From: a virus
Taxonomy: Duplodnaviria; Heunggongvirae; Uroviricota; Caudoviricetes
Length of the DNA stretch: 40,254 bases
IMG/VR virus record: IMGVR_UViG_2541047843_000009
Direction: 5' to 3' (one strand)
Within the stretch, counting starts at the first letter, position 1, and the number at the start of each line of letters is the position of its first letter. The translations under genes were made by a program, and so were the position numbers. Of the stretch, positions 15,028 through 40,254 are shown one piece after another. Below the pieces are notes generated by a model. The model had not been told where the DNA came from and did no database searches. It worked only from the letters and a program-made list of their open reading frames with translations.

Positions 15028-15028
15028 T

Positions 15029-15737: not shown

Positions 15738-15740
15738 AAT

Positions 15741-17154: not shown

Positions 17155-17157
17155 GAA

Positions 17158-18216: not shown

Positions 18217-18232
18217 CGGGTTTTGTGCTCCA

Positions 18233-19066: not shown

Positions 19067-19144
19067 GAGCCGTGCTCCGTTAGAAAAAACTTACTGGAGC
19101 CTTATGGTTGCGGTGATGGGGGCAGTGAAACAATGCGCGGTATT

Positions 19145-19162
19145 TGTACCGACAACCACACA
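19145..19162 (+). promoter_or_regulatory. Candidate Ogr-dependent late promoter element (TGT-N12-ACA) in the O/P divergent region
   Basis: tgtaccgacaaccacaca lies 47-64 nt upstream of the P start. Confidence 0.5.
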
Positions 19163-19208
19163 AACCGCAGGCGGGGAAAGCCTTCATTCAAGGCTGTAGG
19201 TTTGTGCC

Positions 19209-20975: not shown

Positions 20976-22009
20976 TGGGAAAGAGTAAGAAGAACCGCGC
21001 TGCGGCGACGAAACAGATCCAGCTTAAAAGTCAAACTACAGCCGAAGCATTCAGCTTCGGCGATCCCGTTCCTGTTCTGGACCGCCGAGAACTGCTGGAT
21101 TATGTGGAATGCGTACAGATGGACCGCTGGTATGAGCCGCCCGTCAGCTTTGACGGACTGGCGCGCACCTTCCGCGCTGCCGTTCATCATAGTTCCCCGA
21201 TTGCAGTAAAGTGCAACATTCTGACCAGCACCTACATCCCTCACCCGCTGCTCAGCCAGCAGGCTTTTTCGCGTTTTGTGCAGGACTATCTGGTATTTGG
21301 TAACGCCTACCTGGAGAAACGCACGAACCGCTTCGGTGAAGTTATCGCCCTTGAACCTGCCTTGGCAAAATACACCCGACGCGGGTTAGACCTGGATACC
21401 TACTGGTTTGTGCAATACGGTATGACCACGCAGCCATATCAGTTCACGAAAGGCAGCATCTTTCATCTGATGGAACCGGACATCAACCAGGAGATCTACG
21501 GCCTGCCCGGTTATCTTTCTGCTATTCCATCCGCCCTGCTCAACGAGTCTGCCACGCTGTTCCGCCGCAAGTATTACATTAACGGCAGTCATGCAGGCTT
21601 CATCATGTATATGACCGACGCCGCGCAGAACCAGGAAGATGTGAACAACCTCCGCAACGCGATGAAAAGCGCCAAAGGCCCTGGCAACTTCCGCAACCTG
21701 TTTATGTACTCGCCTAACGGCAAAAAGGACGGGCTTCAGATCATCCCGTTGTCAGAAGTCGCAGCGAAAGATGAATTTCTGAACATCAAGAACGTGAGCC
21801 GGGACGACATGATGGCTGCACACCGCGTACCGCCTCAGATGATGGGAATTTTGCCGAATAATGTTGGGGGGTTTGGGGATGTGGAGAAGGCAAGTCGGGT
21901 ATTTGTTCGTAATGAATTAATACCTTTGCAAAAACGTTTCGAAGAATTAAATTTATGGCTAAAAAATAATATTATTACATTCAAAGAATATCAACTATCC
22001 CTAGACTAA
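20972..22009 (+). CDS. Q: Portal protein Q
   Basis: 345 aa; the last 35 codons or so are AT-rich. Confidence 0.85.
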   Translation: MMGKSKKNRAAATKQIQLKSQTTAEAFSFGDPVPVLDRRELLDYVECVQMDRWYEPPVSFDGLARTFRAAVHHSSPIAVKCNILTSTYIPHPLLSQQAFSRFVQDYLVFGNAYLEKRTNRFGEVIALEPALAKYTRRGLDLDTYWFVQYGMTTQPYQFTKGSIFHLMEPDINQEIYGLPGYLSAIPSALLNESATLFRRKYYINGSHAGFIMYMTDAAQNQEDVNNLRNAMKSAKGPGNFRNLFMYSPNGKKDGLQIIPLSEVAAKDEFLNIKNVSRDDMMAAHRVPPQMMGILPNNVGGFGDVEKASRVFVRNELIPLQKRFEELNLWLKNNIITFKEYQLSLD

Positions 22010-22014
22010 TTAAT

Positions 22015-22035
22015 AACCACCTCTATGAGGTGGTT
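22015..22035. terminator. Bidirectional hairpin between the convergent Q and ORF469
   Basis: Perfect 9-bp stem aaccacctc / gaggtggtt around a 3-nt loop. Confidence 0.5.
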
Positions 22036-22056
22036 AACAAGAATAAACCTAATTAA

Positions 22057-23466
22057 TTACTCATCTACTCTGATTTTTTGTTTTTTATTATTTTGAGTTA
22101 AGACATTTATGGTAATAGATGTATACGGATGAAAGTCAGGAACTATACTTTTAACCTCTCCATTTTCAAGAAAATGATGTGCTATTGAAGGAAATAAATC
22201 AGGATCTACAGGATATTTAGCATTAGGATTATGATACATATTTAAACCTTCTGCCCATGTTTCTGTAATATCGCCTTCTTTCACTTCAAAACTAAATGCT
22301 GCTGGATATAATGCCTCTGGGTCATGATCATGGCAGTAACCACTCCTAAATAATCTAAGGTCACTTCTTCCAAAACCAGCCAGTTTTCCCATCCGATTAA
22401 ACTTCGATATAGTACCACTATTAGAACTAAGGACGGCCGAAATATTTTCAGACTCATCCAAGAAGAAAAAGCCTGAAGGAATTTCCTTTTTCTCAAATTG
22501 ATGCGATATAATTTTCTTAGTTGCTAAACTGTAACATCCATCTTCAGATTTAACATGCTCATAGCGAATACCATAAAGATACTGCCAAAGTGCACTATGG
22601 GACCAAATCATAGAGTTTGGTTCATGAAAATCAGCAATTGCGAAAATTAAAGGATTCCCCTTAACATGTTCTAGATCCCAGTATCGAGTTTTCTTTTTCA
22701 GTTTAGAATAGAGAGAACTTCCAAATTTAATCGGCATATAATTCTCTATTTTCTCTAGCAATTCTTCCTTACTTTTAGGTTCTGATAGCATTTCAGATGA
22801 TTGATTAATATCATTCCCTGTTGGATTAACCGTTACAGCTTCAATGCAAATAGTATTACCATACTTACGTGCCACATAATCAGGGGCATTAAACTGCCTA
22901 TCTAGCCAAAAGTGTTCCTCTCGTAAATATGCGAAAAGATATAACTCCCATAGCCGGGCATCAAAACCTGTTGTCTGAAACTGCTCTATAAAATTCCCGT
23001 CGACATCCTCAAAATGATTCATCATTTCCTTGATTATCCCTGTTGCAGGCGACCAGTTCGCGTATTTACCAAATAATGAAAAATGATGATGAAGTTTATC
23101 TGGTGTAACTATAGGTGTGAATAAATCCATTGCTTTATAAGTTTCATCACCTTGTGGAAATACTTTTACGTTTAATTTAGTATGCTTCCGCATTAATTTC
23201 TTTAGTTTTGCTCGTGCAGAATTCATTTCTGAAACACTAGTAAATAGGTCAATACATCTATATCTCCCACTTAAGTCTCTTGCTAAAACAATACCGCTAT
23301 AATCTTCATCGATTTGATCCAATAATAGTGCCCCTAGCAGGAACTCTCTCGGACTACAGTACCACTCAAACTCATAGCCTAAAAGTTCAGTATTTGGCAT
23401 TCTGGTCCAATCAACAAAAGCATTAAACCTCTCTTTACTCATTTTTTTTATATCAAGAAAAGACAT
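22057..23466 (-). CDS. Hypothetical 469-aa protein; AT-rich cargo gene, candidate anti-phage defence or abortive-infection protein of unassigned family
   Basis: Long ORF in clearly AT-rich DNA between portal and cos, convergent with Q; GAGGT about 9 nt before the ATG; no Walker A motif; no family recognised. Confidence 0.7.
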   Translation of the reverse strand: MSFLDIKKMSKERFNAFVDWTRMPNTELLGYEFEWYCSPREFLLGALLLDQIDEDYSGIVLARDLSGRYRCIDLFTSVSEMNSARAKLKKLMRKHTKLNVKVFPQGDETYKAMDLFTPIVTPDKLHHHFSLFGKYANWSPATGIIKEMMNHFEDVDGNFIEQFQTTGFDARLWELYLFAYLREEHFWLDRQFNAPDYVARKYGNTICIEAVTVNPTGNDINQSSEMLSEPKSKEELLEKIENYMPIKFGSSLYSKLKKKTRYWDLEHVKGNPLIFAIADFHEPNSMIWSHSALWQYLYGIRYEHVKSEDGCYSLATKKIISHQFEKKEIPSGFFFLDESENISAVLSSNSGTISKFNRMGKLAGFGRSDLRLFRSGYCHDHDPEALYPAAFSFEVKEGDITETWAEGLNMYHNPNAKYPVDPDLFPSIAHHFLENGEVKSIVPDFHPYTSITINVLTQNNKKQKIRVDE

Positions 23467-23564
23467 CTTTCTACCTCATCACGAAAAAATATTTTTTCCT
23501 AAAAAGACTTAAGTTAGCTTAATCTATTGATAAAAAAAAGCTAAGTAACGACCAAATACGCGCG

Positions 23565-23583
23565 CTCGTATCCCCGCCACGCC
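23565..23583 (-). other. Candidate cos cohesive-end site
   Basis: Minus strand reads GGCGTGGCGGGGATACGAG; the first 13 nt match the 186/P2 cohesive-end consensus as I recall it (from memory). Confidence 0.45.
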
Positions 23584-23632
23584 TGCCCGCTTTATGTAGT
23601 GGTTTTCATGCACCTGCATGATCTACGCAAAA

Positions 23633-23652
23633 GCCCGCCAGTTCTGGCGGGC
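23633..23652 (-). terminator. Candidate rho-independent terminator of the A-orf-dinI operon
   Basis: Perfect 9-bp GC-rich stem gcccgccag / ctggcgggc followed on the minus strand by TTTTGCG. Confidence 0.45.
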
Positions 23653-23787
23653 CTTAGCAAAAACGATCCTCAAACGATCATGCGATCTCATGCGGCATAG
23701 ACATGCACTACAGAGCTAACGCCTCGCAAGGGCTCGTTGTTCAACCTTGCTGACGCCAGAAGCAAGTTCAGACGCCAGCAACGTTTC

Positions 23788-24021
23788 TTAATGCAGCCAG
23801 CTGTCGTCTTCCCACACCTTCTGCATAATTTTCATCACTTGTTTTCTTTCTTCGTCCAGTTGCAGTCCGGTTAGTTCCACACCGTTAGAGCTACCTTTGC
23901 GAATGCGAATTACCGTTTTGGGATACAGGGGGCGCAGATTGCGGTAAAGCTCGGATTCAAGGGCGTCCAGGGTAGACTGGCTAATCTTCTGCTCTTTATC
24001 GATCATTATTTCAATGCGCAT
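23788..24021 (-). CDS. DinI-like protein
   Basis: 77 aa from MRIEIMIDK..., ending ...VWEDDSWLH, resembling DinI; GGTGA ribosome-binding site. Confidence 0.7.
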   Translation of the reverse strand: MRIEIMIDKEQKISQSTLDALESELYRNLRPLYPKTVIRIRKGSSNGVELTGLQLDEERKQVMKIMQKVWEDDSWLH

Positions 24022-24031
24022 AAAAGTCACC

Positions 24032-24220
24032 TCAGCTGATGACATCCATTGAGCGGTTGTATTCGTGGGTTCTGATTTTTGCCATGAGTTCATCAGTCAA
24101 TTCAGAAACCCACTGCAGAGCCAGCCCCTTCTCTTCATCACTACACTCACTAGCCGCTACAAGCTTAAGAAAAAAATCAATGCGCTGGAGCTTCAAAGAC
24201 TCCAAAAAATAGTCCTGCAT
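24032..24220 (-). CDS. Hypothetical small protein (62 aa)
   Basis: AGGAGG 4-5 nt before the ATG at 24220; the longer track ORF is probably an artefact. Confidence 0.5.
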   Translation of the reverse strand: MQDYFLESLKLQRIDFFLKLVAASECSDEEKGLALQWVSELTDELMAKIRTHEYNRSMDVIS

Positions 24221-24364
24221 CTTTCCTCCTATGACACCACACGCAATGCTGTATGCATAACCACTGTTTATATTTACAGTATATAATAATCTTACTGATG
24301 TAAAACGATTTTTTACGTTCATCAGCCTGGTATTATTAAGAGCACGAATTGTTAACCCGCGTAA

Positions 24365-26779
24365 TTAATACAGGTTCCGCCACTGATCATCTTCCTGCAA
24401 ACGCTGGTTCCGATAGAAGATACGCAGGCCTGCTCCTGACGGAATACTGCCTCCGCGAAGGAGTAAATCGACCTCTTTCTCGCTGCCATCAAATCCTCTG
24501 GACTTCAGCTCATACACGAGCTGCAGTCGCTGATGGTCTGTAATTCGCTGTTTGTAGTCTTTACGCCGTTTCGGTTTCACCAGGCGTAACCTTGCTGCCA
24601 GTTCCCGGCGCTCTTTTTTGCTCATACTGTGCAGGTAATCGTGCAACTCCTTGTCATCCATGCTGGTAATGTCCGTTCTGGGGTCCCCATCAGCTGATTT
24701 ATCTTTCTCCTGTTGGTTCAAATTTTCAGCAAGGGGACAGTTATTGCCACGAGTCCAAGGGGCGCAAGCGCCCTGGTCGGCTGCCGCCTCCTGAACGTCA
24801 ACGGCCTTACGAACCATTTTCCACTTCACGGCATGAGTGCAGATCTTGCCCTCTGCAATAGGTGACCAGATGCCATAAATACGAATGCCGTGATCGCCAT
24901 AGGCGGTCGGCTCTTCGTTGATTTCATAAGCAGTTCTGATAAGGTGATATTTACGGGGAACCAGTACGCCGCCCTGCTTCATGATGTAGGTGGCAAAACA
25001 ACCAGCATCAGCAGCAGCCAGGATTGCATCAAGGCGCGGGTTATCCAGTACCGGCGCACCTGCTTTTTTGTCACCCTGTTGCCTTGCCGCCTGACCAGCC
25101 AGCAATCGCAGTTCACGGTAAGCCTGACGCCCCGGAATGCCAAAGAAGCGGAATTGCTGAACACGATGCAGAGACGCCCAGGCATTCACGTATTCAGCGT
25201 TATCACGCAGGGATTTACCCGTTTCCTTGCTGATCTCGCCAGCCAGACCACGCCCGTCAATGTTCTTACTGATATATTTCGCGATGTAGCTTGTCGGCGT
25301 TCCTTTGCGCGGGTTAATCAACTCAGACTTAAAGCGCGGCCCCGTGTTATTGCCCAGCTCCTCGCGGTCTTCACGGATGGCAAACTTACGCAGTAATGCA
25401 GTGATGGCGCGGCGGTCTTTTTTGCGCATAAAACACAACAGGTGCCAGTGAACTGTACCGTCATGATGCGGCTCAGCCACCCGCACGCCATACCAGCGCA
25501 ATCCGGCTTTGTGCATCGCCTTACGAAATGCAGCAAACATGCCGACCAAATAATCACTGCTTTGTCTTACCGTCGCATTTGTCCAGTTCGGGTTGGGTCT
25601 GCCGTTATTTAGCGTGGAATGGAAACGTGACGGACAGGTGATGGTGTAGAAAACGGCGCAGTCACCGCGCATTTCCGCGATAAGTTCCAGACCTTTAACA
25701 CAGGCCATCATCTCATTGCGGCGATGCGCAGGGTTGCTGCTGCTGGCGTTTACCACATCCTCCATGTCCAGCGTGTCGCCGTCTTCGTTCACCAGTTCAT
25801 GAGAACGGAAAAACTCCAGCGACTTACGGCGCTGCTCACGTTTATGCATCACGGCTTCATAGCTGACATAAGGAGATGCTTTTTTGCTGACCAGGCAGAC
25901 AGCGCGCAACTGCTCTTCCCGCCATTCGCAACGCATCTTCCATAATTTCCGGTACCACCAGTCAGCGCACAACATACGCGCCAGCGAACCCGGAATGAGT
26001 TCATAGGGCACGGGTTTACGGCGGTTTCTTTTCCGACGGAGTTGCTCAAACGCAGGCGGGATAACATCCAGACGCAGGGTTTCCGCTGCCACCTTTTCCC
26101 ATGTCTTGCGGATTTCTTCTGGCTTAACGTCATCGGTGGCATACAAATCACCACAAGCTGCATCAAGGCACATGCTCATATGCGCAGCGACAAGGGTAGA
26201 CAGGCGCTTCACCTGATCCTGACTCATTTCAGGCAGGATAAGCAGGCCATCCAGCCCTTCATGGCTTGCCATAAAGCGAAAAGAAGCGGATAGCTGACTG
26301 TCGCGTACATGCTCCAGTCGTTCCAGACATGGCTTAATCGTCTCACGCAAATAGCGGGAATAAGCCTTTGGCCTGCCCAGGCTGCTGAAGTATTCAATAC
26401 GTTGCATCAGCGGCTTGCTGATATGGGAAGGCTGGGCATTGACGTCCGCCAGAATGACCATATCTGGATTAAAACGCTGCTGCTCATGCGCCAGCTTTGC
26501 CCGACTAATGAGCTTATCCTGCTCCATTTCGCGCTGGACAGGATCACGGGATTCATTAAAGAAATAACGCTCCCAGACCTGATCACTCAGTGCCTCGCGG
26601 CGCAGCTGTTCCTGCTCGTTATCGGCAGCGTACAGAGTGATCAGGTTTGAAAGCGCAGAAACCGGCGCAACTTCCGCCGGGTCCAGATAAGGGTTAATGG
26701 CCTTTTTCGGGCTGTTCCATGAGAACGATGCGGCAGCCTCGTTAAAGCCGCAGCAGTTGTTCATATCGGCATGGCTCAT
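24365..26779 (-). CDS. A: Replication initiation endonuclease A (rolling-circle, HUH type)
   Basis: 804 aa; [10 protein letters not shown] motif; ATGA overlap with the upstream methylase gene. Confidence 0.9.
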
Positions 26780-27633
26780 GCACGTACTCCGTACACGGCA
26801 GAACTATCCACGCCACGCGAATAATCAAATCCCACCCAGCAGCGCGGCCCGGAAACAGCAATGATTTCTGTTGCTGATTTACCCTCGCCAGCTGCCACAC
26901 CGATGCTGCGTTTTGCCTTGATGTAGTGGTGAGTAAAATTGCGATACAGCGAACGGATCAGGGATGTGTCACTGTTAGAAACAATGACCGGATGTCCTTC
27001 TGATGACCGATGTTCAAGAACAGATGCCAGGTGATACTGGTCATCTTCAGTGAAACCATCAGTGTGATAGCCGGAAAACGTACCGTCATACGGCGGATCG
27101 CAATACACCACATCCCCCGCCTTCAACATCGCCAGCGTTTCATCAAAGCTGGCGCAGATAAACGTTGCTCGCTGGGCCTTTTCTGCAAATGCGCGAATTT
27201 CTTTTTCAGGGAAATACGGATTTTTATAATTACCGTAGGGAATGTTGAAATGCCCGCTCTTGTTATAGCGACATAAACCACGGTAACCGTGACGATTGAG
27301 ATACAGGAAATATACCGCTTTCATGAAATCAGTAATTTCAGTGGAGTAATTAAACTCCTGCCTTATGTTGTAATAAGCCACCTCCCTGTTTGCGATCTCA
27401 AATAAAACTCTGGCGCGAGATATAAACGATTCACAATCAGCAGCAACCTTTTTATAGAGGTTGATTAAATCAGGATTAATATCCGCAACCAGATAGCTGG
27501 GGTAATCCGTCTCCATCATCACAGCACAGGAACCCGCGAAAGGTTCAACCAGTCGCGGGCCAGCAGGAAGGTGTTTTTTCAGTTCGGACATAATGGCGGT
27601 TTTATTTCCCGCCCATTTCAGGATGGTGCTCAT
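26776..27633 (-). CDS. DNA N6-adenine methyltransferase, Dam-like
   Basis: DPPY catalytic motif (VVYCDPPY) and N-terminal AdoMet-binding region (EPFAGSCAV); start taken at [11 protein letters not shown]. Confidence 0.85.
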
Positions 27634-27857
27634 ACAGCACCTCCGTTGTAATGTTTGCCTTTCAGCTCTGCGATTTCCTGACAGGTAATGCAAAGCTGCA
27701 CCCCCGGAATGGCACGGCGGCGTGCTGGCGGAATTGGCGCTTCACACTCAACGCAAAGCACGCGGGACACGCCCGGCGTTTTGGCACGGGCAGCACGGAT
27801 ATGACGTTGGCGTTCTTCTTCAACTCGCTGCTGTACGAGATCCATTGCATCAGCCAT
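27630..27857 (-). CDS. TraR/DksA-family C4 zinc-finger protein
   Basis: CVECEAPIP...CITCQ; 75 aa; translationally coupled to both neighbours. Confidence 0.75.
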   Translation of the reverse strand: MADAMDLVQQRVEEERQRHIRAARAKTPGVSRVLCVECEAPIPPARRRAIPGVQLCITCQEIAELKGKHYNGGAV

Positions 27858-28096
27858 CAGTGGATCTCCTGCGCTTCGTTCTGGATTGCTTCAGCAGTCA
27901 CACGCAGCAGTTCTGCCGCTTCGACGTGGTTTAGTTGGCGGGATGTGATATGACACGCCAGGCTATCAAGGCGAGCTGCCATTGCTTCAGCCCTTGCCCG
28001 GCGTTCTTCCAGACGAGCCTCTGTCAGTAAAATATTAAGCCCTGCATCATCCGGTCCGGTTTTAGTCGTGAGGGTTTCAATATTACGCATAATCAA
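27857..28096 (-). CDS. Hypothetical early-region protein (79 aa)
   Basis: ORF in operon context; stop overlaps the next start (TGATG). Confidence 0.5.
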   Translation of the reverse strand: MIMRNIETLTTKTGPDDAGLNILLTEARLEERRARAEAMAARLDSLACHITSRQLNHVEAAELLRVTAEAIQNEAQEIH

Positions 28097-28157
28097 TTCT
28101 CCTGAATTTAGATAAAGGGATGCCCGGCGGGTTTACGCCATTAATTTCATTAGTTGG

Positions 28158-28499
28158 TTAATTCGGCATGGTTAGCCGTCTGGGAAATAAGCTCACCACT
28201 GCACGAAAATGATTCATTGCTTTAATCAGCTCCCGCTTTTCGTCAGTGGTCAGCTCATTAATGCTGATGCTATGACGTTCAGCTGGAATTTTTGCCATAA
28301 AGAATATGGCAGCCAGTGCCCGTTTATTTTGTTCATTATTGATATCCCGTGGATCACGCATATCTTTAATAAACCGCTCAAGCTCTGACTCAATATTCAT
28401 GCCAAAAACTTTCGCCCTTAACTCCGCAATGTGATTAAGTCCATTCAGGCGTTCACCGGGGCTTAATGGAACAGTTGCTGCAGCGCCATTAATTGCCAT
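28158..28499 (-). CDS. Hypothetical early-region protein (113 aa)
   Basis: ORF in the early rightward-type operon; no family recognised. Confidence 0.5.
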   Translation of the reverse strand: MAINGAAATVPLSPGERLNGLNHIAELRAKVFGMNIESELERFIKDMRDPRDINNEQNKRALAAIFFMAKIPAERHSISINELTTDEKRELIKAMNHFRAVVSLFPRRLTMPN

Positions 28500-28521
28500 A
28501 CTTCATATCCCCCAAACGCAG

Positions 28522-28746
28522 CTATCGTTCTTTGTTCTTACGGTAACGCTCAAGAGGAGATACATTTTTTCGTATCGTCTCTTTAACCTGCTCTCCCCGT
28601 AAAAACGTCCCATCCTTTAACGTGAAAAAGTAACTGCCATCGCCCGACAATGACGGATAGCAACAGAGCAAATCATCTTCAGGTACTGAATAACTCTCCC
28701 CTCTGTAACGAAACTGATAAACCACTTCACTTTCTGCCGCATACAT
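28522..28746 (-). CDS. Hypothetical small acidic protein (74 aa)
   Basis: GGAG about 9 nt before the ATG; protein-like composition. Confidence 0.5.
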   Translation of the reverse strand: MYAAESEVVYQFRYRGESYSVPEDDLLCCYPSLSGDGSYFFTLKDGTFLRGEQVKETIRKNVSPLERYRKNKER

Positions 28747-28913
28747 TTGGACTTTCTCCGTTTCCTCGTGGTCAATTCAGACAGCAATTCATCTTGTGAA
28801 TGACATGGATGCCAGCGTTTTCCATTCTCACCCGTGATCCAGCCGTGACCGTAGTGCATTGCCGGACTTTGTTTTACCAGCAGCGACGCAAATGATGGTT
28901 CTTTCGTCAGCAT
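28617..28913 (-). CDS. Hypothetical ORF overlapping 28522-28746 in another frame; possible frameshifted or overlapping gene
   Basis: Start at MLTKEPSF just after cII; the N-terminal half looks protein-like, the C-terminal half is Lys/Arg-rich and overlaps the neighbouring ORF. Confidence 0.3.
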   Translation of the reverse strand: MLTKEPSFASLLVKQSPAMHYGHGWITGENGKRWHPCHSQDELLSELTTRKRRKSKCMRQKVKWFISFVTEGRVIQYLKMICSVAIRHCRAMAVTFSR

Positions 28914-28920
28914 AAGCACC

Positions 28921-29430
28921 TCACAGCAAACCGAATGAAGCACCGAGACCAGTCACAGTATCAACTGCACTCGCCATCGCAGGGTTAGCCTGTAAACGGG
29001 CCTGCAATGAAACAGCCGCCAGCGCCATCAGTCGTGTTACAGAATTAATGCTGCTGATGGCATCACGACGACCGGCACTGGTTTTTACATCGCCAGATAC
29101 CGCACCTGCAGCAACACGCCCGATCTCTGCGGTTGCACTCATGACGTAATGCGGCAGTTTCTCTTTTGCTACCTCATTAATCGGTACACATGGCAGGCAG
29201 TGAATCTGTGCCAGAAAACCATCTATCAGCGTTGAATCTTCAGTCAGATCGGTAAGCAGCCAGATTTCTGGCGCATTGAGCTGATGCGGTTGATCTGGGT
29301 TGAGTTTGTTTCGCAGAGTCTGGACATTCATTCCTGCACGTTCTGCCAGCTTCGCCATATTGTGACGAAGTGCAAAAGCTCTACAGGCTTCATCAAAATG
29401 CGGGTGTTTGGAAATCTTATAATCAAACAT
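28921..29430 (-). CDS. cII: CII-like establishment-of-lysogeny regulator (186 type)
   Basis: 169 aa, the length of 186 CII; helix-turn-helix-like N-terminus; directly downstream of apl. Confidence 0.7.
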   Translation of the reverse strand: MFDYKISKHPHFDEACRAFALRHNMAKLAERAGMNVQTLRNKLNPDQPHQLNAPEIWLLTDLTEDSTLIDGFLAQIHCLPCVPINEVAKEKLPHYVMSATAEIGRVAAGAVSGDVKTSAGRRDAISSINSVTRLMALAAVSLQARLQANPAMASAVDTVTGLGASFGLL

Positions 29431-29462
29431 GCTACCCCCTTAGAAAGTTCTCATAATTGAAC

Positions 29463-29705
29463 TTACTTACCAACAATGACGCGGAAGTTGGAATGACCGA
29501 GGGATTCACGGACCTGATCGGTTTTGTACATTAAATAACGCAGGCTTACGCGGCCTTTGTTTTTTTCCTTCTTGACCATGTATTTAGCAAGCTGACCATG
29601 GTGAATTTTTTGATACACAGAGCCGCGGGAGATACCTTCCCATTCAGCGAACTCAGCAGGCGTTGCCATCTCTTTTGGTACACGAATTGAAATATCAGTA
29701 CTCAT
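29463..29705 (-). CDS. apl: Apl/Cox-like excisionase and repressor of the lysogenic promoter
   Basis: 80-aa basic protein, first gene of the lytic-direction operon, divergent from cI. Confidence 0.7.
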   Translation of the reverse strand: MSTDISIRVPKEMATPAEFAEWEGISRGSVYQKIHHGQLAKYMVKKEKNKGRVSLRYLMYKTDQVRESLGHSNFRVIVGK

Positions 29706-29821
29706 AGTGCAGTATCTCTTAGTTTGGTTTCGTTTTATCTTGTTTTATGTGGTTTGGTTTTGCTTTTCAAACCATGAATGGATATTAAGATCACTTTTTA
29801 TATACGTCAAGAGGTTTGATT
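29706..29821. promoter_or_regulatory. Lysis-lysogeny switch region between the divergent apl and cI genes
   Basis: Direct repeats gtttggttt at 29722-29730 and 29752-29760 in AT-rich DNA. Confidence 0.5.
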
Positions 29822-30454
29822 ATGAGCTTAATCAAAGCGGGAAATGATAGTGGTGGGCGCGATGCAATTAACAGGCTTATTAAGGCTTACAACTTCAGCT
29901 CACGACAGCAGCTCTGCGAACATCTGGAAGTATCCAAAAGCACTATGGCTAACAGATACTTAAGGGATAGCTTTCCTGCCGAATGGGTAATTCAATGTGC
30001 CCTTGAAACAGGAGCTTCCCTTCTATGGCTGGCTACTGGTCAAGGAGATATGTATGCGTGTGAGAACGAAGAAACAAATCTCAAAAATGAACCTCCCGTC
30101 ACTGTAAGACCACTTTCTAAGATCGTTGCTCCTAGCATCAAACGTGTTGAACTGAAGAACGGCGAACTGCAGGCAAGTGATGAAATTCTTATTGATAGCA
30201 GCCTGCTCGATGGTGACTCATCCAACGCTTTATTTGTTAAAACAGCTAATAATAGCTTTGTAGTGGATACGTCCGTTAAACAAGTCAGTAATGGCTTCTG
30301 GTTAGTCGATATGGACGGAGTTAAAAGCATCGTCAAAATTGCGCGCATACCCGGAAACAAAATAGTAGTTAGCCAAGATGACACTTCATTTGAATGTTCT
30401 GTAGATGATGTGGAAGTCGTAGGACGTGCAGTCAAAGTAATCAAGAACCTCTAA
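29822..30454 (+). CDS. cI: CI immunity repressor (186 type)
   Basis: CALETGASLLWLATGQG motif as I recall in 186 CI; start taken at the ATG after GAGG (the track start is a TTG); 210 aa. Confidence 0.8.
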   Translation: MSLIKAGNDSGGRDAINRLIKAYNFSSRQQLCEHLEVSKSTMANRYLRDSFPAEWVIQCALETGASLLWLATGQGDMYACENEETNLKNEPPVTVRPLSKIVAPSIKRVELKNGELQASDEILIDSSLLDGDSSNALFVKTANNSFVVDTSVKQVSNGFWLVDMDGVKSIVKIARIPGNKIVVSQDDTSFECSVDDVEVVGRAVKVIKNL

Positions 30455-30457
30455 CTT

Positions 30458-31474
30458 ATGACCATCAGAAAACAGCCGAACGGAAAATGGTTGTGTGAGT
30501 GCTATCCCAATGGACGCAATGGTAAGCGCGTGCGTAAGCAATTTGCTACCAAAGGCGAAGCCATTGCATTTGAAAGCTTCACAATGGAAGAAGTGAACAA
30601 AAAACCGTGGTTAGGAGAAAAGGATGATCGGCGACACCTATCAGAATTAATTGAGCTTTGGTATTCCCTGTATGGTCAGACACTCGCAGACCCCAAGCGC
30701 CTCATGGCGAAACTTAGAATTATCTGTAATGGTCTAGGCGACCCCATCGCCTCAGAACTGACAGCCGGTGACTTTACGAAATACCGCGAAGCACGGTTAA
30801 AAGGTGAAGTACGAAATGAAGATGGCACGTTTATGTCGCCCGTTAAGCCCCGCACGGTAAACCTTGAACAGCGCAATCTATCATCTGTTTTTGGTACGCT
30901 GAAAAAGCTGGGCCACTGGTCAGCCCCCAACCCGCTTGCTGGGCTGCCAACATTTAAAATTGCTGAGAGTGAATTGGCGTTCCTGACCCCGGAAGAAATT
31001 AAACGTCTGCTGGATGCCTGCGCCGATTCTCAAAGCTCCAGCCTGCTTTTGATTGCAAAAATATGCCTGGCCACCGGCGCACGCTGGAGCGAAGCCGAAA
31101 ACCTGCAGAGTCATCAGGTATCAAAATACCGTATCACTTATACCAAGACCAAAGGCAAGAAAAACCGAACTGTGCCTATTTCTAAGGATTTATATGAAGA
31201 ACTGCCTAAGAATAGGGGGAAGTTATTCACCCCATGCAGAAAAGCCTTTGAGCGTGCAGTAAAGCGGGCTGGTATCGATCTGCCAGAGGGTCAATGTACT
31301 CACGTTCTGCGTCATACATTCGCTAGCCATTTTATGATGAATGGTGGAAACATATTGGTTTTGCGGGATATCCTAGGACATTCAGATATAAAAATGACCA
31401 TGGTCTATGCACACTTCGCCCCAGACCATTTAGAAGATGCCGTAACTAAAAATCCTTTATTTAATTTGAGGTAA
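30458..31474 (+). CDS. int: Tyrosine integrase (P2/186 type)
   Basis: 338 aa; C-terminal ...HVLRHTFASHF...LGHSDIKMTMVYAH catalytic region with the Tyr. Confidence 0.9.
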   Translation: MTIRKQPNGKWLCECYPNGRNGKRVRKQFATKGEAIAFESFTMEEVNKKPWLGEKDDRRHLSELIELWYSLYGQTLADPKRLMAKLRIICNGLGDPIASELTAGDFTKYREARLKGEVRNEDGTFMSPVKPRTVNLEQRNLSSVFGTLKKLGHWSAPNPLAGLPTFKIAESELAFLTPEEIKRLLDACADSQSSSLLLIAKICLATGARWSEAENLQSHQVSKYRITYTKTKGKKNRTVPISKDLYEELPKNRGKLFTPCRKAFERAVKRAGIDLPEGQCTHVLRHTFASHFMMNGGNILVLRDILGHSDIKMTMVYAHFAPDHLEDAVTKNPLFNLR

Positions 31475-31484
31475 GTAGTAATTT

Positions 31485-32153
31485 ATGAATAGCGAACTAG
31501 AGTTACTTATAAAAATATTATTCCCTTCCCTATCTGCCATTATATCCTTATTAGGGCTTAAAACAGGGTGGACTTATAAAAAAGATAAACTATTCACATC
31601 ACGTAAAAACATTAGCGAATTTTCATATCAGATGTATAAAAGCAGTGAAGATCCGACCTTCAAAAAACTGGCGGAAGATTACGGCATTGCTGCATTAACC
31701 AAAGATAACACATTGACAAAAAAACAAAGATTAATATTACTCAACACAACAAACCCCGTTAGCGATATAGATAATTATTCCAAATGTCAAAGTCTAATTT
31801 CCATTACCACCCATAAAGAAATATTCGCATGGAATAAAAAAAGATATAAATACAGCATATATAGAAAATTAATAAAAATCATAACAACTCTAATTTACTT
31901 CATGAGCAGTCTCATCGTAGCACTTCCTTTCAGTTATTCTGTTGTAGTAAGTGCTAAGATGATGGAGAAGATAAACCATCTAACTACTTGGCAATACTTT
32001 GGTTTAAGCAGCTATTTTGTGGTATCGGGAGTAGCAATATGCTTTATCTGCCTAGATAAGCTCTCCAAGATTAAGATCGCCGAGAGATTAATCGTTTCGA
32101 ATAGGCGTTTAGGCGACAAATGCAGTGGCGGCACTTTGGCGGCAGAAAGTTAA
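31485..32153 (+). CDS. Hypothetical AT-rich membrane protein (222 aa, about 3 transmembrane helices); candidate moron or superinfection-exclusion gene
   Basis: Starts 10 nt after the int stop; hydrophobic helices at the N-terminus and around residues 133-157 and 172-191; very AT-rich. Confidence 0.6.
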   Translation: MNSELELLIKILFPSLSAIISLLGLKTGWTYKKDKLFTSRKNISEFSYQMYKSSEDPTFKKLAEDYGIAALTKDNTLTKKQRLILLNTTNPVSDIDNYSKCQSLISITTHKEIFAWNKKRYKYSIYRKLIKIITTLIYFMSSLIVALPFSYSVVVSAKMMEKINHLTTWQYFGLSSYFVVSGVAICFICLDKLSKIKIAERLIVSNRRLGDKCSGGTLAAES

Positions 32154-32237
32154 AAACCCATAAAACGGACAGACACCGCATAAATCTAACCAACTGAAAA
32201 TCAAAGCAAATCATTGTTTTTACAGACATTGAAATGC

Positions 32238-32282
32238 TATGTAGGAATTTCGGACGCGGGTTCAACTCCCGCCAGCTCCACC
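32238..32282 (+). other. ssrA: 45-nt copy of the tmRNA (ssrA) 3' end; prophage att core at the prophage-host junction
   Basis: atgtaggaatttcggacgcgggttcaactcccgccagctccacca matches the ssrA 3' terminus as I recall it; the sequence upstream does not continue as ssrA, so this is a core duplicate. Confidence 0.7.
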
Positions 32283-32386
32283 AATCATGATTGGACGGTG
32301 TAAGGACAACACCAACAAAAACAGGAAGTTAGCAGTCTCAGCAGGACACCGACCAGACGGTGAGGAGACAAAAAAGGATACGCAAA

Positions 32387-32440
32387 GGAGCCGCGGCTCC
32401 CAAGTGACATGAAAGCCCGCATCTGCGGGCTTTTTCGTTT
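32387..32440 (+). terminator. Structured region: 14-nt palindrome (32387-32400) plus an intrinsic terminator hairpin and T-run (32415-32440)
   Basis: ggagccgcggctcc, then gcccgc-atct-gcgggc followed by tttttcgttt. Confidence 0.5.
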
Positions 32441-32583
32441 CATCTGCAAAAATGTCTATACATCAGCCGCCACAAACGGAGCAACAGCCTTTATTGGTGT
32501 GGGTGTTAAATTGACAAGGTACCTGCGACAGGAGATTTCTTGTTTATTTGTAATGCCACTGTTCTTTATCAGGAAGGTGATTA

Positions 32584-32853
32584 ATGGAAAATCTACTTTT
32601 TGTGATGTGTTGGATTAAAGATCATCATGTGATGTCATTAACTTTTGGCGTCTTATCTGCAATTTTATGGATTAAATCTGCTACAGCAAAAGTTGAGTTA
32701 GGCAAAAAAATTGTCATGGTTACGTATGAAGATCCCGAACTTAACGTGAATCTCCATGATTTCTTCGCCACTGCGCGGCTTCAATCTAAGTACAATTCAT
32801 TTGCAGCATTGTCTGCAGCAGCAACCGCGCTATTCCAGATTATTGGTTTGTAA
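32584..32853 (+). CDS. Hypothetical small hydrophobic protein (89 aa)
   Basis: AGGAAGGTGA ribosome-binding site; two hydrophobic segments; AT-rich. Confidence 0.45.
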   Translation: MENLLFVMCWIKDHHVMSLTFGVLSAILWIKSATAKVELGKKIVMVTYEDPELNVNLHDFFATARLQSKYNSFAALSAAATALFQIIGL

Positions 32854-32991: not shown

Positions 32992-33354
32992 CTAGAGAAT
33001 ACAAAGAACATCATCTGGTGTTAACACAGAGTCTTCTACGTACTCAGGGTGGTTACGTAATACATCTCTCTGATGTCTCAAGATCTGCGCTGGAATTTCT
33101 TGCTCATCCACAATTTTGGCAGTATCCAGCAAAATACTGCCACACCTTATTTCCAGCAAAACAAAGCGATTCCACTCTGGACCGTTAGAACACAAAAGGT
33201 CAAACAAAACCTCACCTGTAGCCTGTGAATTGCCCAGTATAACAGAAAGCCTCTTCTCGATTTCGTGAACTGAAGTCAAGGGGTTCTCGTAGCCAGTCGC
33301 CATAACGACGGCAATGAGAGCCCCTGAGACGTTAACACCTGTTATTTCAAACAA
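32992..33354 (-). CDS. rnlB: RnlB-like antitoxin
   Basis: 120 aa; start overlaps the rnlA-like stop by 8 nt; resembles E. coli RnlB (from memory). Confidence 0.65.
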   Translation of the reverse strand: MFEITGVNVSGALIAVVMATGYENPLTSVHEIEKRLSVILGNSQATGEVLFDLLCSNGPEWNRFVLLEIRCGSILLDTAKIVDEQEIPAQILRHQRDVLRNHPEYVEDSVLTPDDVLCIL

Positions 33355-34417
33355 TATACAAATCCTTAATAATTCCCCATGCCTGTCTGGCCTTAGTCAT
33401 CAGTCGTGCCATGTCAGAAACCATACGGCTTGTGTCGACAACTATCTCCATATGGAACAGGCCATGACGTTCTCTGTTAAAGAAAGTATAGGCATCATTA
33501 ATGGTCTTAACCTTAGCTGACGATAAATTGCATCCAAATTGTTGTTTCAGAATAAATTCACTCCCAATTTTATCAAAATAAGGTCCGAAACCATCCTGCG
33601 TGATTGGCATGCCATATCGGTACATTGTTGATTTAAGTACTCCCTCAACTGAACGTAATTCAGGATACAACAACATACAGTAATCGGGTAAATCGGGGGC
33701 GGCGAGTTTAACACACAGCCCAGAAACGAGCAATTTTTCAACATTCTTATGCAATAGTGGGTACGCATCCCCCATTTCACACTCTAGATGTGAGCGAGCA
33801 ACTTCTTTCTGAACTATATACGCTTTGCCATCGTCCTGACGAATGAGAACTTTTTCCAGACCTTGTAAATCGAGTAGCTCTGACAAGTTGAATATAAACA
33901 CTCTATAACATGACAATGGACGCCCTTGTATTTGTAGTGTTCCATTTCTGTGATGCAGACTAACTGTCAACTCATCCTGAAATTCTGGCGAATGAATTTT
34001 CCACACCGTTGTATGAGTGTTCCGTAAGTATTCGTAAAATTGTATATGTGGCTGCTCTGCTGAGAGCTGAAGTACAGATAAAACGTTCGCTTCAACGAAC
34101 CCTTGTAACACCATATTTACCTGTTCAAATTCTGCAGGATTGATGGTTTCATAGAGATTATCAGCCAACTCTTTGCCAAGATTATGATTAGCTCCTGTTT
34201 GATACTGGACTGTAGACGTCCCTCCGTTATTATAGAAAATGTTAACAGTTGCCAAAGCTTCTCCTGGTTTAGCAAACACAACCCGAAGTCCTGCTCTTGT
34301 ACCAGGCATTGGTCCAATTGAATGGACGGAATAGTTTTTATTTTCAATAAATGCCCTAGACGTAGCCTCAATAGTTGTCCGATCCAAATTTAAATTAGTG
34401 TAGTTCCTGACTGTCAT
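33347..34417 (-). CDS. rnlA: RnlA-like endoribonuclease toxin (RNase LS family)
   Basis: 356 aa from MTVRNYTNLNL..., resembling the E. coli RnlA N-terminus and length (from memory); two-gene operon with the antitoxin. Confidence 0.65.
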   Translation of the reverse strand: MTVRNYTNLNLDRTTIEATSRAFIENKNYSVHSIGPMPGTRAGLRVVFAKPGEALATVNIFYNNGGTSTVQYQTGANHNLGKELADNLYETINPAEFEQVNMVLQGFVEANVLSVLQLSAEQPHIQFYEYLRNTHTTVWKIHSPEFQDELTVSLHHRNGTLQIQGRPLSCYRVFIFNLSELLDLQGLEKVLIRQDDGKAYIVQKEVARSHLECEMGDAYPLLHKNVEKLLVSGLCVKLAAPDLPDYCMLLYPELRSVEGVLKSTMYRYGMPITQDGFGPYFDKIGSEFILKQQFGCNLSSAKVKTINDAYTFFNRERHGLFHMEIVVDTSRMVSDMARLMTKARQAWGIIKDLYIV

Positions 34418-34476: not shown

Positions 34477-34760
34477 TCAGGCGCTGTATCCTGAAATCGG
34501 GTACCGATAATATCCCTCCTGCAGCCATGTGTTGGTGTTAACAAGATACTGTGTATCAATTGAATCCGTCAGACTGCAAAAGTTGATACCTCTTTCGCGC
34601 AGTTCCTCCACCAGCACGACAAGATGCCTCATACTGCGCCTCAGTCGGTCCAGTTTCCAGACCACCAGAGTGTCACCTGCCGATAATGTCCTGAGAAATT
34701 TTTTAGCCCGGGTCTTTCGGGCGTTGTAACGCTGATTTTATCTTCAAAATCAGCGCGCAT
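34477..34760 (-). pseudogene. Truncated, frameshifted Pin-type DNA invertase remnant
   Basis: MVWKLDRLRRSMRHLVVLVEELRERGINFCSLTDSIDT matches the central part of the invertase at 7294-7860; DNA similarity continues upstream out of frame; the C-terminal helix-turn-helix half is missing. Confidence 0.7.
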
Positions 34761-34817
34761 TCTTCTTAGGCCAGCAAGTTCTTATATGTGACGTGACTGT
34801 GGCTACAACAGATACGA

Positions 34818-34880
34818 TTATTCCATAACAGGGCTTGCAGGCCACTCAATATCCGGTGCAGTTGATGTATCAACACGATT
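34818..34880 (-). pseudogene. Tail-fibre assembly gene remnant (C-terminal about 20 codons only)
   Basis: ...[19 protein letters not shown] matches the C-terminal motif of the Tfa proteins at 8343-9357; upstream codons are not protein-like. Confidence 0.55.
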
Positions 34881-34953
34881 CAACAACACCCGATACTTCT
34901 TCCATGCTGAAAGCAATGATGCCGTTCCTAAGTTGCATTTACAGCCACCTTTT

Positions 34954-35250
34954 TCACCCGCGCTCAACCAACAACCAGACCAGCAGACACGCCACCACCG
35001 GCACAGCAAAATCCATCAGGCTTGCCACATCCCACGCGCGCGGATCAAAACCGCCCCACCACGGCATATTCATACGCTTGCCATGCCCGAACATTTCAAT
35101 CCAGCGATATTCTGCCTGGGTGTGCTCACGCGCAATGAAGAACGTACAACCGGCTATCGCACCGTAAGCCCACTTTCCGGTAAAAAGACCAACCAGTACC
35201 TGTGCGACCACAGCACAAAGTGCATGAAGTAAGGGACTTATATCCATCAT
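34954..35250 (-). CDS. Hypothetical small membrane protein (98 aa)
   Basis: Two hydrophobic helices; lies downstream of the lambdoid tail-fibre genes. Confidence 0.5.
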
Positions 35251-35259
35251 TTCCTCCTT

Positions 35260-35538
35260 TCAGCTCCATTCCCGAAGCGGAGTTTCCAGCTCCACGTCAT
35301 AATCCGAGAATACAGAAACATCAAACAAGTCATCAAGAATGCGAATGTTGACAAAATAACCGTCATTCCGGATACAGACAGGTTCTCCCTCTTCTGTTAC
35401 CCCTGTTTCTGTGTAGGTGAAACCAATTTCATCAACTAACAGTTTATTCTGGAGGTCTTCATCTTCCGCCCAGCCAAGAGATGACAGGAAGGCCTTAAAC
35501 TGCAGTTTGTCATGAAACTTCAAAGTTAAATCTTTCAT
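35260..35538 (-). CDS. Hypothetical acidic protein coupled to stf; possible tail-fibre chaperone
   Basis: 92 aa; start overlaps the stf stop (ATGA). Confidence 0.5.
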   Translation of the reverse strand: MKDLTLKFHDKLQFKAFLSSLGWAEDEDLQNKLLVDEIGFTYTETGVTEEGEPVCIRNDGYFVNIRILDDLFDVSVFSDYDVELETPLREWS

Positions 35539-37601
35539 ACGGCCTCTTTTAATTGCCTGTCATTTAATTCTTTATGCCATATGCGGAAATTGCGAATATG
35601 GCCAAACAGATGTCGTTCTCCAGTATTCGTCTGCCCTCCAAATCGGATATTTTTATCAGCGGTCACGCCATTATATTCACAATAAACTTCATTAACCGCT
35701 TTACCATTTGTCACCACATGAAAGTGACCATCAGCTTTTGCAATACATCCAAATGTGGTTTTCTCTGCAAATACATCTGTCGCTGCGCTATTAACATACG
35801 AGCCTGAAGGGTTTGACAGACTCATATATAACTTACCACTACCTCTGTTGATTGCTGCAATTGCTGATTGCCCGGTATTGGCTGCTGCTATATCCCACAC
35901 GCGGGGTGCGGCGTTTGGTGCAATATCCCAGTTTTTATGAATCTCAAGTAAAAAAGTAAATGGTAACTTATAAAGATTATTTCTGGTGGGGATACTAACC
36001 AAATCACTGGCTCTTGTCGTTGCGCTGCCTCCTGAAATAATAAATGATGATACACACGGCCCATTCTCTACTTGTGGGGTGGCAAGATAAATATAGTCAC
36101 CAGATACTGTTGCCCCACCCTGCTTAGGAGAATACTGTATCTGAGAGCCTATTTTTAACTCACCATCAATTGCCTGAATCGTTGCCTCTGCAAAAATCCA
36201 GCCTGTGGTCTTATCCTTCCTGACTCGTGCCGTAATTCTGCCGGAAGCACCACCTGTCATATTAATTTCAAGCGTTTGCGTATCAATGTACGCATCGCCA
36301 AGAAAAGTTGTTGCACTACCATCATACTTATCAAACCGGATACGTAACCTTACCTGTCGTTCTGTTTTAAAACGACATGAGGTTGTCACGTACTTGTTAT
36401 CGCCTGAGACATCAACTGACTTTGTTGCAGCAATTGATGCCATATTAATAGCCGAGGTTTGCCCAATCAGAGAATCGTTGCAGACAAACTTTCCATATGT
36501 AAAACCAAAACAATCCGTCCCGGTTTCGGGCACATCCATGTTTGACGACCTCCCCCAGCTGGCTGGACTTTCCGAATTGAGCATGTAGTTCGTTCTTTGC
36601 CCCTCAATAAGCAGGCCATCACACTCAAATCGCGGCTCATTAATTTCCGCCGTTTTCAGTTCGCCAGATTTGTTGATATATGTTGCCGTTGATGCGCGAC
36701 TGAAATTAACCTGTTTATCATCGGCGACCTGAACCACATCGTCACCAATGGCTATTTTTTTATAGCCCGGAGAAAACCCCGCAATCATATCCAGTGAATC
36801 GTTAAACGGTATCCACACATCAGGCAGCGGCGGCACTATATTCGCATAGGGCTCTGCAGTCACCTCCGCAGCGGCTTCTGCGCGGTCTGCCGCCTTTTCA
36901 GCTCGTGTCGCTGCTAACAGAGCCTCATCCTTTTTCTGCCCGGCCTTTGTTGCGTCTGCTGCGGCCTCCCGCGCTTTTGTGGTGGCAGTTTCAGCTGCAG
37001 TTGTCGCTGATGATGCTTCACGACGTGCTGCGTCAGCATTTTCTGCGGATTTCTCCTCTGACGCCCGGGCATTAGTCTCTGAAAGTGATGCTGATGTTGC
37101 TGCTTTTTCTGATGCTGTTTTAGAAGATGCAGCAGCTTTCGCGCTGTTACCTGCATTCGTCTCTGATGTTTTCGCCGCGTTCCTGGACGATGCCGCTGCA
37201 GTTTCGGATTTCTTTGCCGCCGCTGCGCTCTGAGAGGCGACTTCAGCGTTGCGTGCCGCCTCTTCCACCATCTTTTCAAAACGATACAGTGCCTCCGGAC
37301 GAACATCATCTTCTGTTGCAGCGCCCAGAAAATCATTCAATGTCCCCGGTTTAGAATCCTCATACACGGTAATGGTCCCGGCATGTGAAGGCGGAAAACC
37401 TTCAACCAACAGGGTGACGCTGTACTGGCCATACTCAACATCCATGCTGTAACGCCCGGCTTCATCCGGATTTTCAGAGGCCACCGTGTTCACCAGTACC
37501 GTGGTGCTGTTACGTTTTGCTTTGAGCTGAATGGTGCAGTTCTGTATCGGTTTTCCTGCACCGTCTTTCAGCACGCCTGAAATCTGTACTGCCATATTCA
37601 C
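35535..37601 (-). CDS. stf: Lambdoid side tail fibre protein
   Basis: N-terminus MAVQISGVLKDGAGKPIQNCTIQLKA... matches lambda Stf; Ala/Ser-rich low-complexity shaft; distinct C-terminal domain. Confidence 0.85.
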   Translation of the reverse strand: MNMAVQISGVLKDGAGKPIQNCTIQLKAKRNSTTVLVNTVASENPDEAGRYSMDVEYGQYSVTLLVEGFPPSHAGTITVYEDSKPGTLNDFLGAATEDDVRPEALYRFEKMVEEAARNAEVASQSAAAAKKSETAAASSRNAAKTSETNAGNSAKAAASSKTASEKAATSASLSETNARASEEKSAENADAARREASSATTAAETATTKAREAAADATKAGQKKDEALLAATRAEKAADRAEAAAEVTAEPYANIVPPLPDVWIPFNDSLDMIAGFSPGYKKIAIGDDVVQVADDKQVNFSRASTATYINKSGELKTAEINEPRFECDGLLIEGQRTNYMLNSESPASWGRSSNMDVPETGTDCFGFTYGKFVCNDSLIGQTSAINMASIAATKSVDVSGDNKYVTTSCRFKTERQVRLRIRFDKYDGSATTFLGDAYIDTQTLEINMTGGASGRITARVRKDKTTGWIFAEATIQAIDGELKIGSQIQYSPKQGGATVSGDYIYLATPQVENGPCVSSFIISGGSATTRASDLVSIPTRNNLYKLPFTFLLEIHKNWDIAPNAAPRVWDIAAANTGQSAIAAINRGSGKLYMSLSNPSGSYVNSAATDVFAEKTTFGCIAKADGHFHVVTNGKAVNEVYCEYNGVTADKNIRFGGQTNTGERHLFGHIRNFRIWHKELNDRQLKEAV

Positions 37602-37610
37602 TCCACAAAT

Positions 37611-37635
37611 AAAAAAGGCGCCATTTCTGGCGCCC
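37611..37635 (-). terminator. Hairpin with T-tract between J and stf
   Basis: ggcgcc-atttct-ggcgcc followed on the minus strand by six T. Confidence 0.5.
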
Positions 37636-37653
37636 GTATTTGGGTTATAAAAT

Positions 37654-40254
<2,601 letters not shown>

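Follow-up and report, generated by a model that had tools for sequence, protein, structure and literature searches.

What is the last piece of a bacterial tmRNA gene (ssrA) doing between two blocks of phage genes, and to which of them does it belong? The stretch of DNA analysed here, referred to as the window, comprises 40,254 nt, and a preliminary description based on its letters alone had left two points open: which element owns the ssrA-derived core, and whether the elements stand in tandem. Our findings offer an answer to both, in that the core would overlap the attachment sites of both elements and these would be arranged in tandem, in the order ssrA, P2-like prophage, core plus trailer fragment, lambdoid prophage. 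We regard it as very probable that positions 32239-32284 are a displaced ssrA 3' fragment made by the integration of a Fels-2/SopEphi-type phage, and that this fragment doubles as the attL of the adjoining lambdoid prophage.

The fragment itself, the 45-mer ATGTAGGAATTTCGGACGCGGGTTCAACTCCCGCCAGCTCCACCA, lies on the + strand at 32239-32283, occurs a single time in the window, and reproduces the final 45 nt of E. coli ssrA, CCA included, without a mismatch. No match was found in any of 100 shuffled sequences, even with three mismatches permitted, and the annotated ssrA 3' end matches the window from exactly 32239 on in every one of the 5,426 complete E. coli genomes compared. The preliminary description had the fragment begin at 32238; the fragment is real, and its true start lies one base further on. 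ARAGORN reported zero tmRNA or tRNA genes in the window, and Rfam gave no match at the gathering score. In permissive mode, the Rfam tmRNA model scored 33.9 bits against a threshold of 47, with a convincing alignment only for the 3' 45 nt. These null results fit a gene fragment, and the features of a functional tmRNA gene, namely a 5' acceptor strand, a tag reading frame and pseudoknots, are absent at this place. The earlier view of these 45 nt as a tmRNA 3' end with CCA and with the rest of ssrA missing was therefore correct, and neither program shows a functional ssrA covering the position, which had been named beforehand as an observation that would speak against an attachment-site reading.

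The attachment site was delineated through a four-way alignment in which the ssrA end of JJ1886 served as attB, the ssrA end of MSB1_4I, a strain bearing the same P2-like phage as the window, as attL, the window as attR, and phage Cartapus as attP. The block of identity common to all four is 46 nt long (32239-32284). To its left the window continues in attP and to its right in attB, with attL showing the reciprocal pattern; the right flank of the window is also the sequence that follows intact ssrA in unoccupied strains. In Cartapus, attP (locus L005, 9906-9951) stands where the int-side and ogr-side arms meet, between the int-side cargo gene and a 160-aa ORF that adjoins ogr. Similarly, the GenBank record of Fels-2 carries an annotated attP of 47 nt, split across the record ends, with the same first base as the window core.

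Arm-type repeats flank the core on both sides. Those of the P arm in the window stand at -130, -115 and -104 from the core, that is, 104-130 nt to its left, and the repeats at -115 and -104 are also found in Cartapus and RE2010. Those of the P' arm stand at +91 and +102 from the core start (loci L003, L005, which is Cartapus, and L036), at the same distances in Cartapus and RE2010. The repeat core GGCG[A/G]CA is the complement of the 186-type arm consensus tgccGCCActt (PMC3448106). The junction of P arm and core is present in 93 of the 5,426 complete E. coli genomes. The alignment of attB, attP, attL and attR supports the earlier proposal that the fragment is the att core of the P2-like prophage at an ssrA-derived site. 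The result fixes the right boundary of this prophage at 32284, together with the left boundary of the lambdoid one, and the junction is an ordinary duplicated attachment site of an already-known kind (Fels-2, SopEphi, "Traffic at the tmRNA gene"). The coordinates of the features are collected in Table 1.

Table 1. Features at and around the ssrA-derived junction, in window coordinates.
Feature	Position	Strand	Evidence or remarks
Fels-2-type P2-like (Peduoviridae) prophage body	1..32238	.	ogr through CI, int and 222-aa ORF
186-type CI repressor, first gene of the CI-int-ORF222 unit aimed at the att site	29822..30454	+	RefSeq annotation of identical VCSW8 / MSB1_4I proteins; Pfam Phage_CI_repr
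Tyrosine integrase, 338 aa	30458..31474	+	Pfam Int_N (E 3e-29, arm-binding) and Phage_integrase (E 1.5e-25, catalytic)
222-aa cargo ORF (phrog_21256, unknown function)	31485..32153	+	Variable slot between int and att site
186-type integrase arm-type repeats, n=3, GGCG[A/G]CA cores at 32112, 32127, 32138	32109..32146	+	int-side (P) arm
Common core, 46 nt: last 45 nt of ssrA (T-arm, 3' acceptor strand, CCA) plus one A	32239..32284	+	attR, int-proximal junction of the P2-like prophage; four-way att alignment
Lambdoid att homology: last 27 nt of ssrA plus 152-nt trailer/terminator	32256..32438	+	Lambdoid-linked sequence variant
Perfect 14-nt palindrome CCAATCATGATTGG, overlapping CCA	32281..32294	.	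Identical in 7 of 8 aligned copies after ssrA or fragment
Perfect 14-nt palindrome GGAGCCGCGGCTCC, small trailer hairpin	32387..32400	.	Folding energy -10 kcal/mol
Putative intrinsic-terminator hairpin with T-run: AAAGCCCGCA-TC-TGCGGGCTTT at 32412-32433 (10-bp arms), then TTCGTTT	32412..32441	+	Inverted-repeat search and folding
Lambdoid cargo, 89-aa ORF	32584..32853	+	
RnlB antitoxin	32992..33354	-	Pfam RnlB_antitoxin
RnlA toxin	33347..34417	-	Pfam RnlA domains
Lambdoid tail end, including recombinase remnant	34477..40254	-	Pfam, PHROGs, annotated JJ1886 homologues; 99.925% identity to GCA_964040575.1 (locus L012)
Two small ORFs in the lambdoid tail end	34954-35250, 35260-35538	-	
Side tail fibre	35535-37601	-	Lambdoid tail end
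Tip attachment protein J, running off the window	37654-40239	-	Lambdoid tail end

To the left of the core, the preliminary description had seen a P2/186-like prophage ending with int. A complete-looking P2/186-like prophage is indeed present, and its end is formed by CI, int and the extra 222-aa ORF rather than by int itself. Its genes run from ogr (27-245, - strand) through D, U, tape measure, sheath, tube, an invertible tail-fibre cassette, baseplate, lysis, head, terminase and portal, and then through the PD-T7-1 cargo gene, gpA, Dam, CII, an Apl-like gene, CI, int and the 222-aa ORF; the part that lies beyond the window is solely the final 606 nt at the ogr end, consisting of the P' arm and the 160-aa ORF. 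Save for one inverted segment, the prophage matches, at 99.9-100% identity, one that is annotated in E. coli MSB1_4I and is located there between ssrA and a copy of the core, and it is the annotation of this 99.9%-identical prophage that documents the P2-type late gene order and the CI/CII/Apl-like switch. The early region is 85-96% identical at the DNA level to Fels-2, RE2010, Cartapus and Klebsiella prophages (Kp4865-2), and the best DNA matches of this region, the only one compared, span both Felsduovirus and Elveevirus. The integrase shares 311 of 337 residues (92%) with that of Fels-2. For the 222-aa ORF, whose last codons overlap the arm-type repeats, no family was found in Pfam, NCBIfam or PADLOC; in Cartapus and RE2010 this place between int and att is taken up by a 401-aa RES-domain gene, and in Fels-2 there is no gene.

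The inverted segment corresponds to a 1.8-kb cassette of tail-fibre and tail-fibre-assembly genes (7925-9718), which lies in the opposite orientation to its counterpart in the MSB1_4I prophage and adjoins a DNA invertase gene (phrog_125; 7294-7866, - strand). The cassette, an invertible host-range segment, is seen here in its alternative orientation. The 468-aa fibre protein encoded by the inverted cassette is rare, with 11 contigs in public assemblies. A 469-aa cargo gene of low GC content (35%) is located between the portal gene and the DinI/gpA region (22057-23466, - strand); its product matches the PD-T7-1 anti-phage defence protein (PADLOC, E 1e-196) and no Pfam or NCBIfam family. Elsewhere, this slot is taken by an AIPR protein, as in RE2010, or by a TIR-domain protein, as in an O157:H16 strain.

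The other end of the P2-like prophage could be read on scaffold KE700850.1 (GCA_000459075.1), to which the window is base-identical over the stretches compared (window 1-18343 and 27485-36153), both of which place window position 1 at record position 2,590,138. On this scaffold, ARAGORN identifies an intact tmRNA gene (tag ANDENYALAA; locus L045, 1145-1507) downstream of smpB; this gene ends 606 nt before window position 1, and its final 45 nt are identical to 32239-32283, at the int end some 33 kb further on. The preliminary description had suggested a search for the same 45-mer left of ogr, beyond the window, and had held that the lack of a second core copy at the other prophage end would count against its reading; the 45-mer is there, as the end of the intact ssrA, and a core copy does lie next to ogr. 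The intact gene is followed by a phage terminator hairpin, the arm repeats, the 160-aa ORF and ogr. Since this phage-supplied terminator (-25.1 kcal/mol, z -5.7) stands directly after the CCA, ssrA remains complete and terminated in the lysogen.

A comparison with an unoccupied ssrA locus, likewise proposed earlier, was provided by GCA_964040575.1 and strain ST167, both of which give empty sites. In the GCA_964040575.1 chromosome (locus L012), smpB and an intact ssrA are joined directly to the equivalent of 32239-40254, with 99.925% identity over 8,016 nt, so that this locus is the window arrangement minus the P2-like phage. In ST167, ssrA is followed by a 160-nt trailer and the convergent ypjA, with no island, a layout which shows that trailer and terminator are native to the ssrA locus. 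An unoccupied attB with matching outer flanks is likewise present in JJ1886 and ST167.

To the right of the core, the material that had been set down as belonging to a different prophage consists of lambdoid prophage genes according to Pfam and PHROGs, and the Pfam families in its tail end are phage_tail_N, Phage-tail_3, Ig_J and Ig_GpJ_C. The preliminary description had also called this a second degraded element. A second element does adjoin the first; degradation was not seen in the window, and the prophage is full-length in related strains. For instance, in JJ1886 the block of trailer, RnlAB and tail fibre comes after the intact ssrA and forms the first part of a full lambdoid prophage of 45 kb, which also has a tyrosine integrase pointing outward (locus L007, 42129-43295), two cargo genes and a second partial ssrA copy. 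At the two ends of this prophage lie the copies of a 186-bp direct repeat (91% identity) that comprises the ssrA 3' end and the whole trailer (399-583 and 46139-46323 of the same locus). By analogy with such JJ1886-type relatives, the lambdoid prophage in the genome of the window would also be complete and would also use ssrA.

The RnlA/RnlB (RNase LS) pair (32992-34417) is cargo at the tail-fibre end, and the same block is found in lambdoid prophages at several chromosomal sites. In the JJ1886 prophage, the cargo slot between int and att (L007 43354-46066) contains an AAA ATPase weakly similar to PtuA/MADS-type defence ATPases and a Dam-like methylase, a slot that parallels the one between int and att in the P2-like phage. 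In the phage collection searched, no lambdoid phage with the ssrA-trailer-RnlAB layout was found; the matches were restricted to lambda-like pieces of the tail-fibre region.

The trailer in the window is the lambdoid-linked variant: it is identical through and beyond the terminator in GCA_964040575.1 (locus L012) and near-identical through and just beyond the terminator in lambdoid prophages at other sites, whereas the native variant, the one linked to ypjA, departs from it at about 32438, immediately past the T-run. Judged from the sequence, 32239-32438 would thus hold two overlapping attachment sites, the 46-nt core of the P2-like phage and the lambdoid homology of 27 nt plus trailer, and by virtue of this overlap the same stretch would be the attR of the former and the attL of the latter.

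The palindrome and the terminator-like hairpin with a T-run that had been noticed after the fragment are both present, and a second 14-nt palindrome was also found. The first palindrome is imperfect in the distal copy of JJ1886, and the second reads GGAGTCGCGACTCC there, a double change by which the palindrome is kept. Over the whole window, four perfect 14-nt palindromes were counted against 2.5 ± 1.5 in shuffled sequences, which is not unusual, and this window-wide count was dropped as evidence. Two palindromes at most 120 nt apart, both conserved in other copies, are more than chance. The terminator region (32405-32445) folds at -18.8 kcal/mol (z = -5.5), with none of 200 shuffles as stable, and the folding energies of the hairpin range from -16.9 to -18.8 kcal/mol. 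A simple consensus terminator scan did not flag the hairpin at 32412-32433; being G+C-rich, followed by a T-run and conserved in structure, it is nevertheless a predicted intrinsic (rho-independent) terminator. Its stem has undergone a compensatory change, from GCCCGC/GCGGGC to GCCCAC/GTGGGC in native copies, which together with the change in the palindrome suggests selection on the structure of the trailer or on a candidate binding site. In strains without the P2-like phage this hairpin is the predicted terminator of ssrA; here it is orphaned downstream of CI-int-ORF222.

Could the fragment be the attL of the lambdoid prophage only, with the P2-like prophage having arrived otherwise, through homologous recombination or an unrelated attachment site, so that the 45-mer would be no P2-like core at all? 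The last 27 nt and the trailer do travel with lambdoid cargo even at sites other than ssrA, and the trailer variant of the window is the one linked to lambdoid prophages. However, the match to ssrA extends leftward to 32239, which is 17-19 nt more than in any of the copies linked to lambdoid prophages, and its left limit is exactly that of the attP core of Cartapus and Fels-2. What lies to the left of 32239 is the phage P arm with its arm repeats, and the other end of the P2-like prophage abuts an intact ssrA. We therefore consider this explanation very improbable.

Slightly less credible still are two others, to which we give about the same small weight. The junction might be an assembly artefact, in which ssrA 3' ends with trailer, present in up to three copies (one inferred, beyond the window), were misjoined in the scaffold; the source is indeed a scaffold-level assembly, and the composite is absent from the 5,426 complete RefSeq genomes. 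Against a misjoin, each half is attested at 99.9% identity at least in finished genomes, with breakpoints at the same bases, the other prophage end is correctly joined to ssrA in the same scaffold, and in an L012-type strain the only place open to a phage dependent on the 46-nt core is the one between ssrA and trailer, exactly as observed; moreover, tandem arrays do exist, since other ssrA islands come after this phage in finished genomes. The fragment might also be what is left of an ssrA gene after decay into a pseudogene, or a tRNA-like small RNA with a function, instead of an attachment scar, a notion to which the retention of a perfect T-arm and CCA, with a terminator after them, lends some colour. 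Yet it has none of the 5' parts of the gene and fails to register as a gene in ARAGORN and Rfam, as described above, there is no promoter-like site on the + strand within 31400-33000, its sharp boundary coincides with that of attP, and an intact ssrA lies 33 kb to the left. The displaced att fragment of a Fels-2/SopEphi-type phage, shared with the lambdoid prophage, is thus the reading retained here.

According to the mechanism proposed for this reading, a P2-like temperate phage would integrate into the 3' end of the tmRNA gene through site-specific recombination by its tyrosine integrase, its attP bringing a 46-nt copy of the ssrA 3' end between 186-type arm repeats. Recombination would leave an intact gene at the ogr end, composed of the host 5' part, the core and the phage-supplied terminator, while the second copy of the core would stay at the int end as the copy in the window. 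This insertion would have taken place in, or been followed by the formation of, a chromosome whose ssrA is also occupied by the lambdoid prophage. The predicted attP of the excised P2-like phage would consist of the arm at 31485-32238, the 46-nt core and the arm AATAAATCAAGGGG, and the predicted repaired site would have ssrA joined to ATCATGATTGG. The integrase and the Apl-like protein may still be able to excise the phage, and excision would be expected to restore a wild-type ssrA, since the fragment in the window has no lesion. The orphaned terminator may now end the transcripts of the CI-int-ORF222 unit.

As for the order of events, the lambdoid phage probably came first and the P2-like phage second, a history that is the simpler one because an L012-type strain (GCA_964040575.1) exists; integration in the reverse order would yield the same sequence. 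The exact composite of P2-like and lambdoid prophages, absent from the 5,426 complete RefSeq E. coli genomes, was seen only in a scaffold-level assembly. Next to the same junction, other assemblies have P4-type integrase islands, ypjA or glaH, and such varied neighbours indicate that stacking at ssrA is routine. Among the loci with the int-ORF222-core junction (L025-L034), P4-type integrase islands follow in six, one of them interrupted by IS21, and ypjA, glaH or a lambdoid prophage in the others; the base after the CCA varies with the neighbour. This variety at the junction points to heavy turnover at the site.

Of the known systems, Fels-2 and SopEphi have ssrA as their integration site, and the 3' sequence that they displace, CGCCAGCTCCACCA, stays intact (PMC10107115 Table 1; PMC3448106). 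That table, in which Williams 2003 is the source for Fels-2 and Pelludat et al. 2003 the one for SopEphi, also includes CP4-57 and others, whose displaced sequences have lesions, so that tmRNA is inactivated when they excise. The window phage shares with these Salmonella phages the target gene, the first base of the core, a matching core length (46 nt here, 47 nt as annotated for Fels-2), the 92% identical integrase, the 186-type CI/CII/Apl-like switch, the arm repeats, an int pointing at the att site and an unmutated displaced fragment. It differs from them in that the host here is E. coli, in a 160-aa ORF between core and ogr and in its hotspot cargo (PD-T7-1), and from Fels-2 in the 222-aa cargo ORF between int and P arm, a place that is empty in that phage.

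CP4-57 of E. coli K-12 and CP4So of Shewanella likewise lie at the 3' end of ssrA, and there too the displaced fragment becomes the 3' end of the gene after excision. In contrast to the window, their fragment has a lesion (delta-T357), so that excision inactivates tmRNA, and their integrase is of the P4 type. As the fragment in the window is wild-type, excision should here be neutral, unlike that of CP4-57-type prophages. In the MSB1_4I copy of the same phage (locus L004, about 11576; also L032), the displaced fragment lacks 5 nt (CTCCA), a deletion of the kind listed as a lesion of other ssrA islands in Table 1 of PMC10107115. Excision in MSB1_4I would give a defective tmRNA if strand exchange lies upstream of this deletion.

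The array also resembles the stacking of islands at the tmRNA gene as presented in PMC10107115, in which several integrative elements target distinct parts of the ssrA 3' end and come to be separated by displaced fragments. In the present case, the two cores, of 46 nt and 27 nt, overlap within a single fragment, and other genomes contain the same phage followed by P4-type integrase islands. The difference is that this particular pair of elements is absent from the complete-genome collection.

Copies of the last 25-27 nt of ssrA with the trailer, the 89-aa ORF and RnlBA were also observed inside lambdoid prophages that are not at ssrA, both on the thrW/ptwF side (L009 9673-9860, L010, L016 and L018) and on the icd side (L015 9675-9860). 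These internal copies are of the same sequence variant as the window and start at the equivalents of 32256 or 32258, which gives two different left junctions, both at the boundary between T-stem and T-loop of ssrA. For the 379-aa ORF that precedes the internal fragment in the thrW-site lambdoid prophages, no family was found in NCBIfam, PADLOC or PHROGs. A further context of the L009-type left flank, in strain 22AR0434, is one more composite.

Sequences of this kind are the sole mildly unusual point of the analysis, and they resemble the attB sequences described inside lambda-like prophages ("prophage-in-prophage"), derived from yecE, ompW and other sites (PMC8112680). In both cases, att sequences of chromosomal origin lie at the tail-fibre/cargo end of lambda-like prophages. 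The sites described there are yecE-, ompW- and other-derived, whereas the candidate site considered here is ssrA-derived. It is possible, although rather unlikely, that the 27 nt of ssrA with the 152-nt trailer/terminator are a portable lambdoid module and not just a scar. By analogy, such a module could serve as an attB of the ssrA type that prophages carry within them, and so offer elements that target ssrA a landing pad of the prophage-in-prophage kind. It could also be a retained former attP, a relic that still supplies a terminator.

For the source strain, these findings indicate a two-prophage array at ssrA, of little import beyond annotation. More broadly, the locus is an example of the use of overlapping parts of a single small RNA gene by several elements, a principle that is already established.
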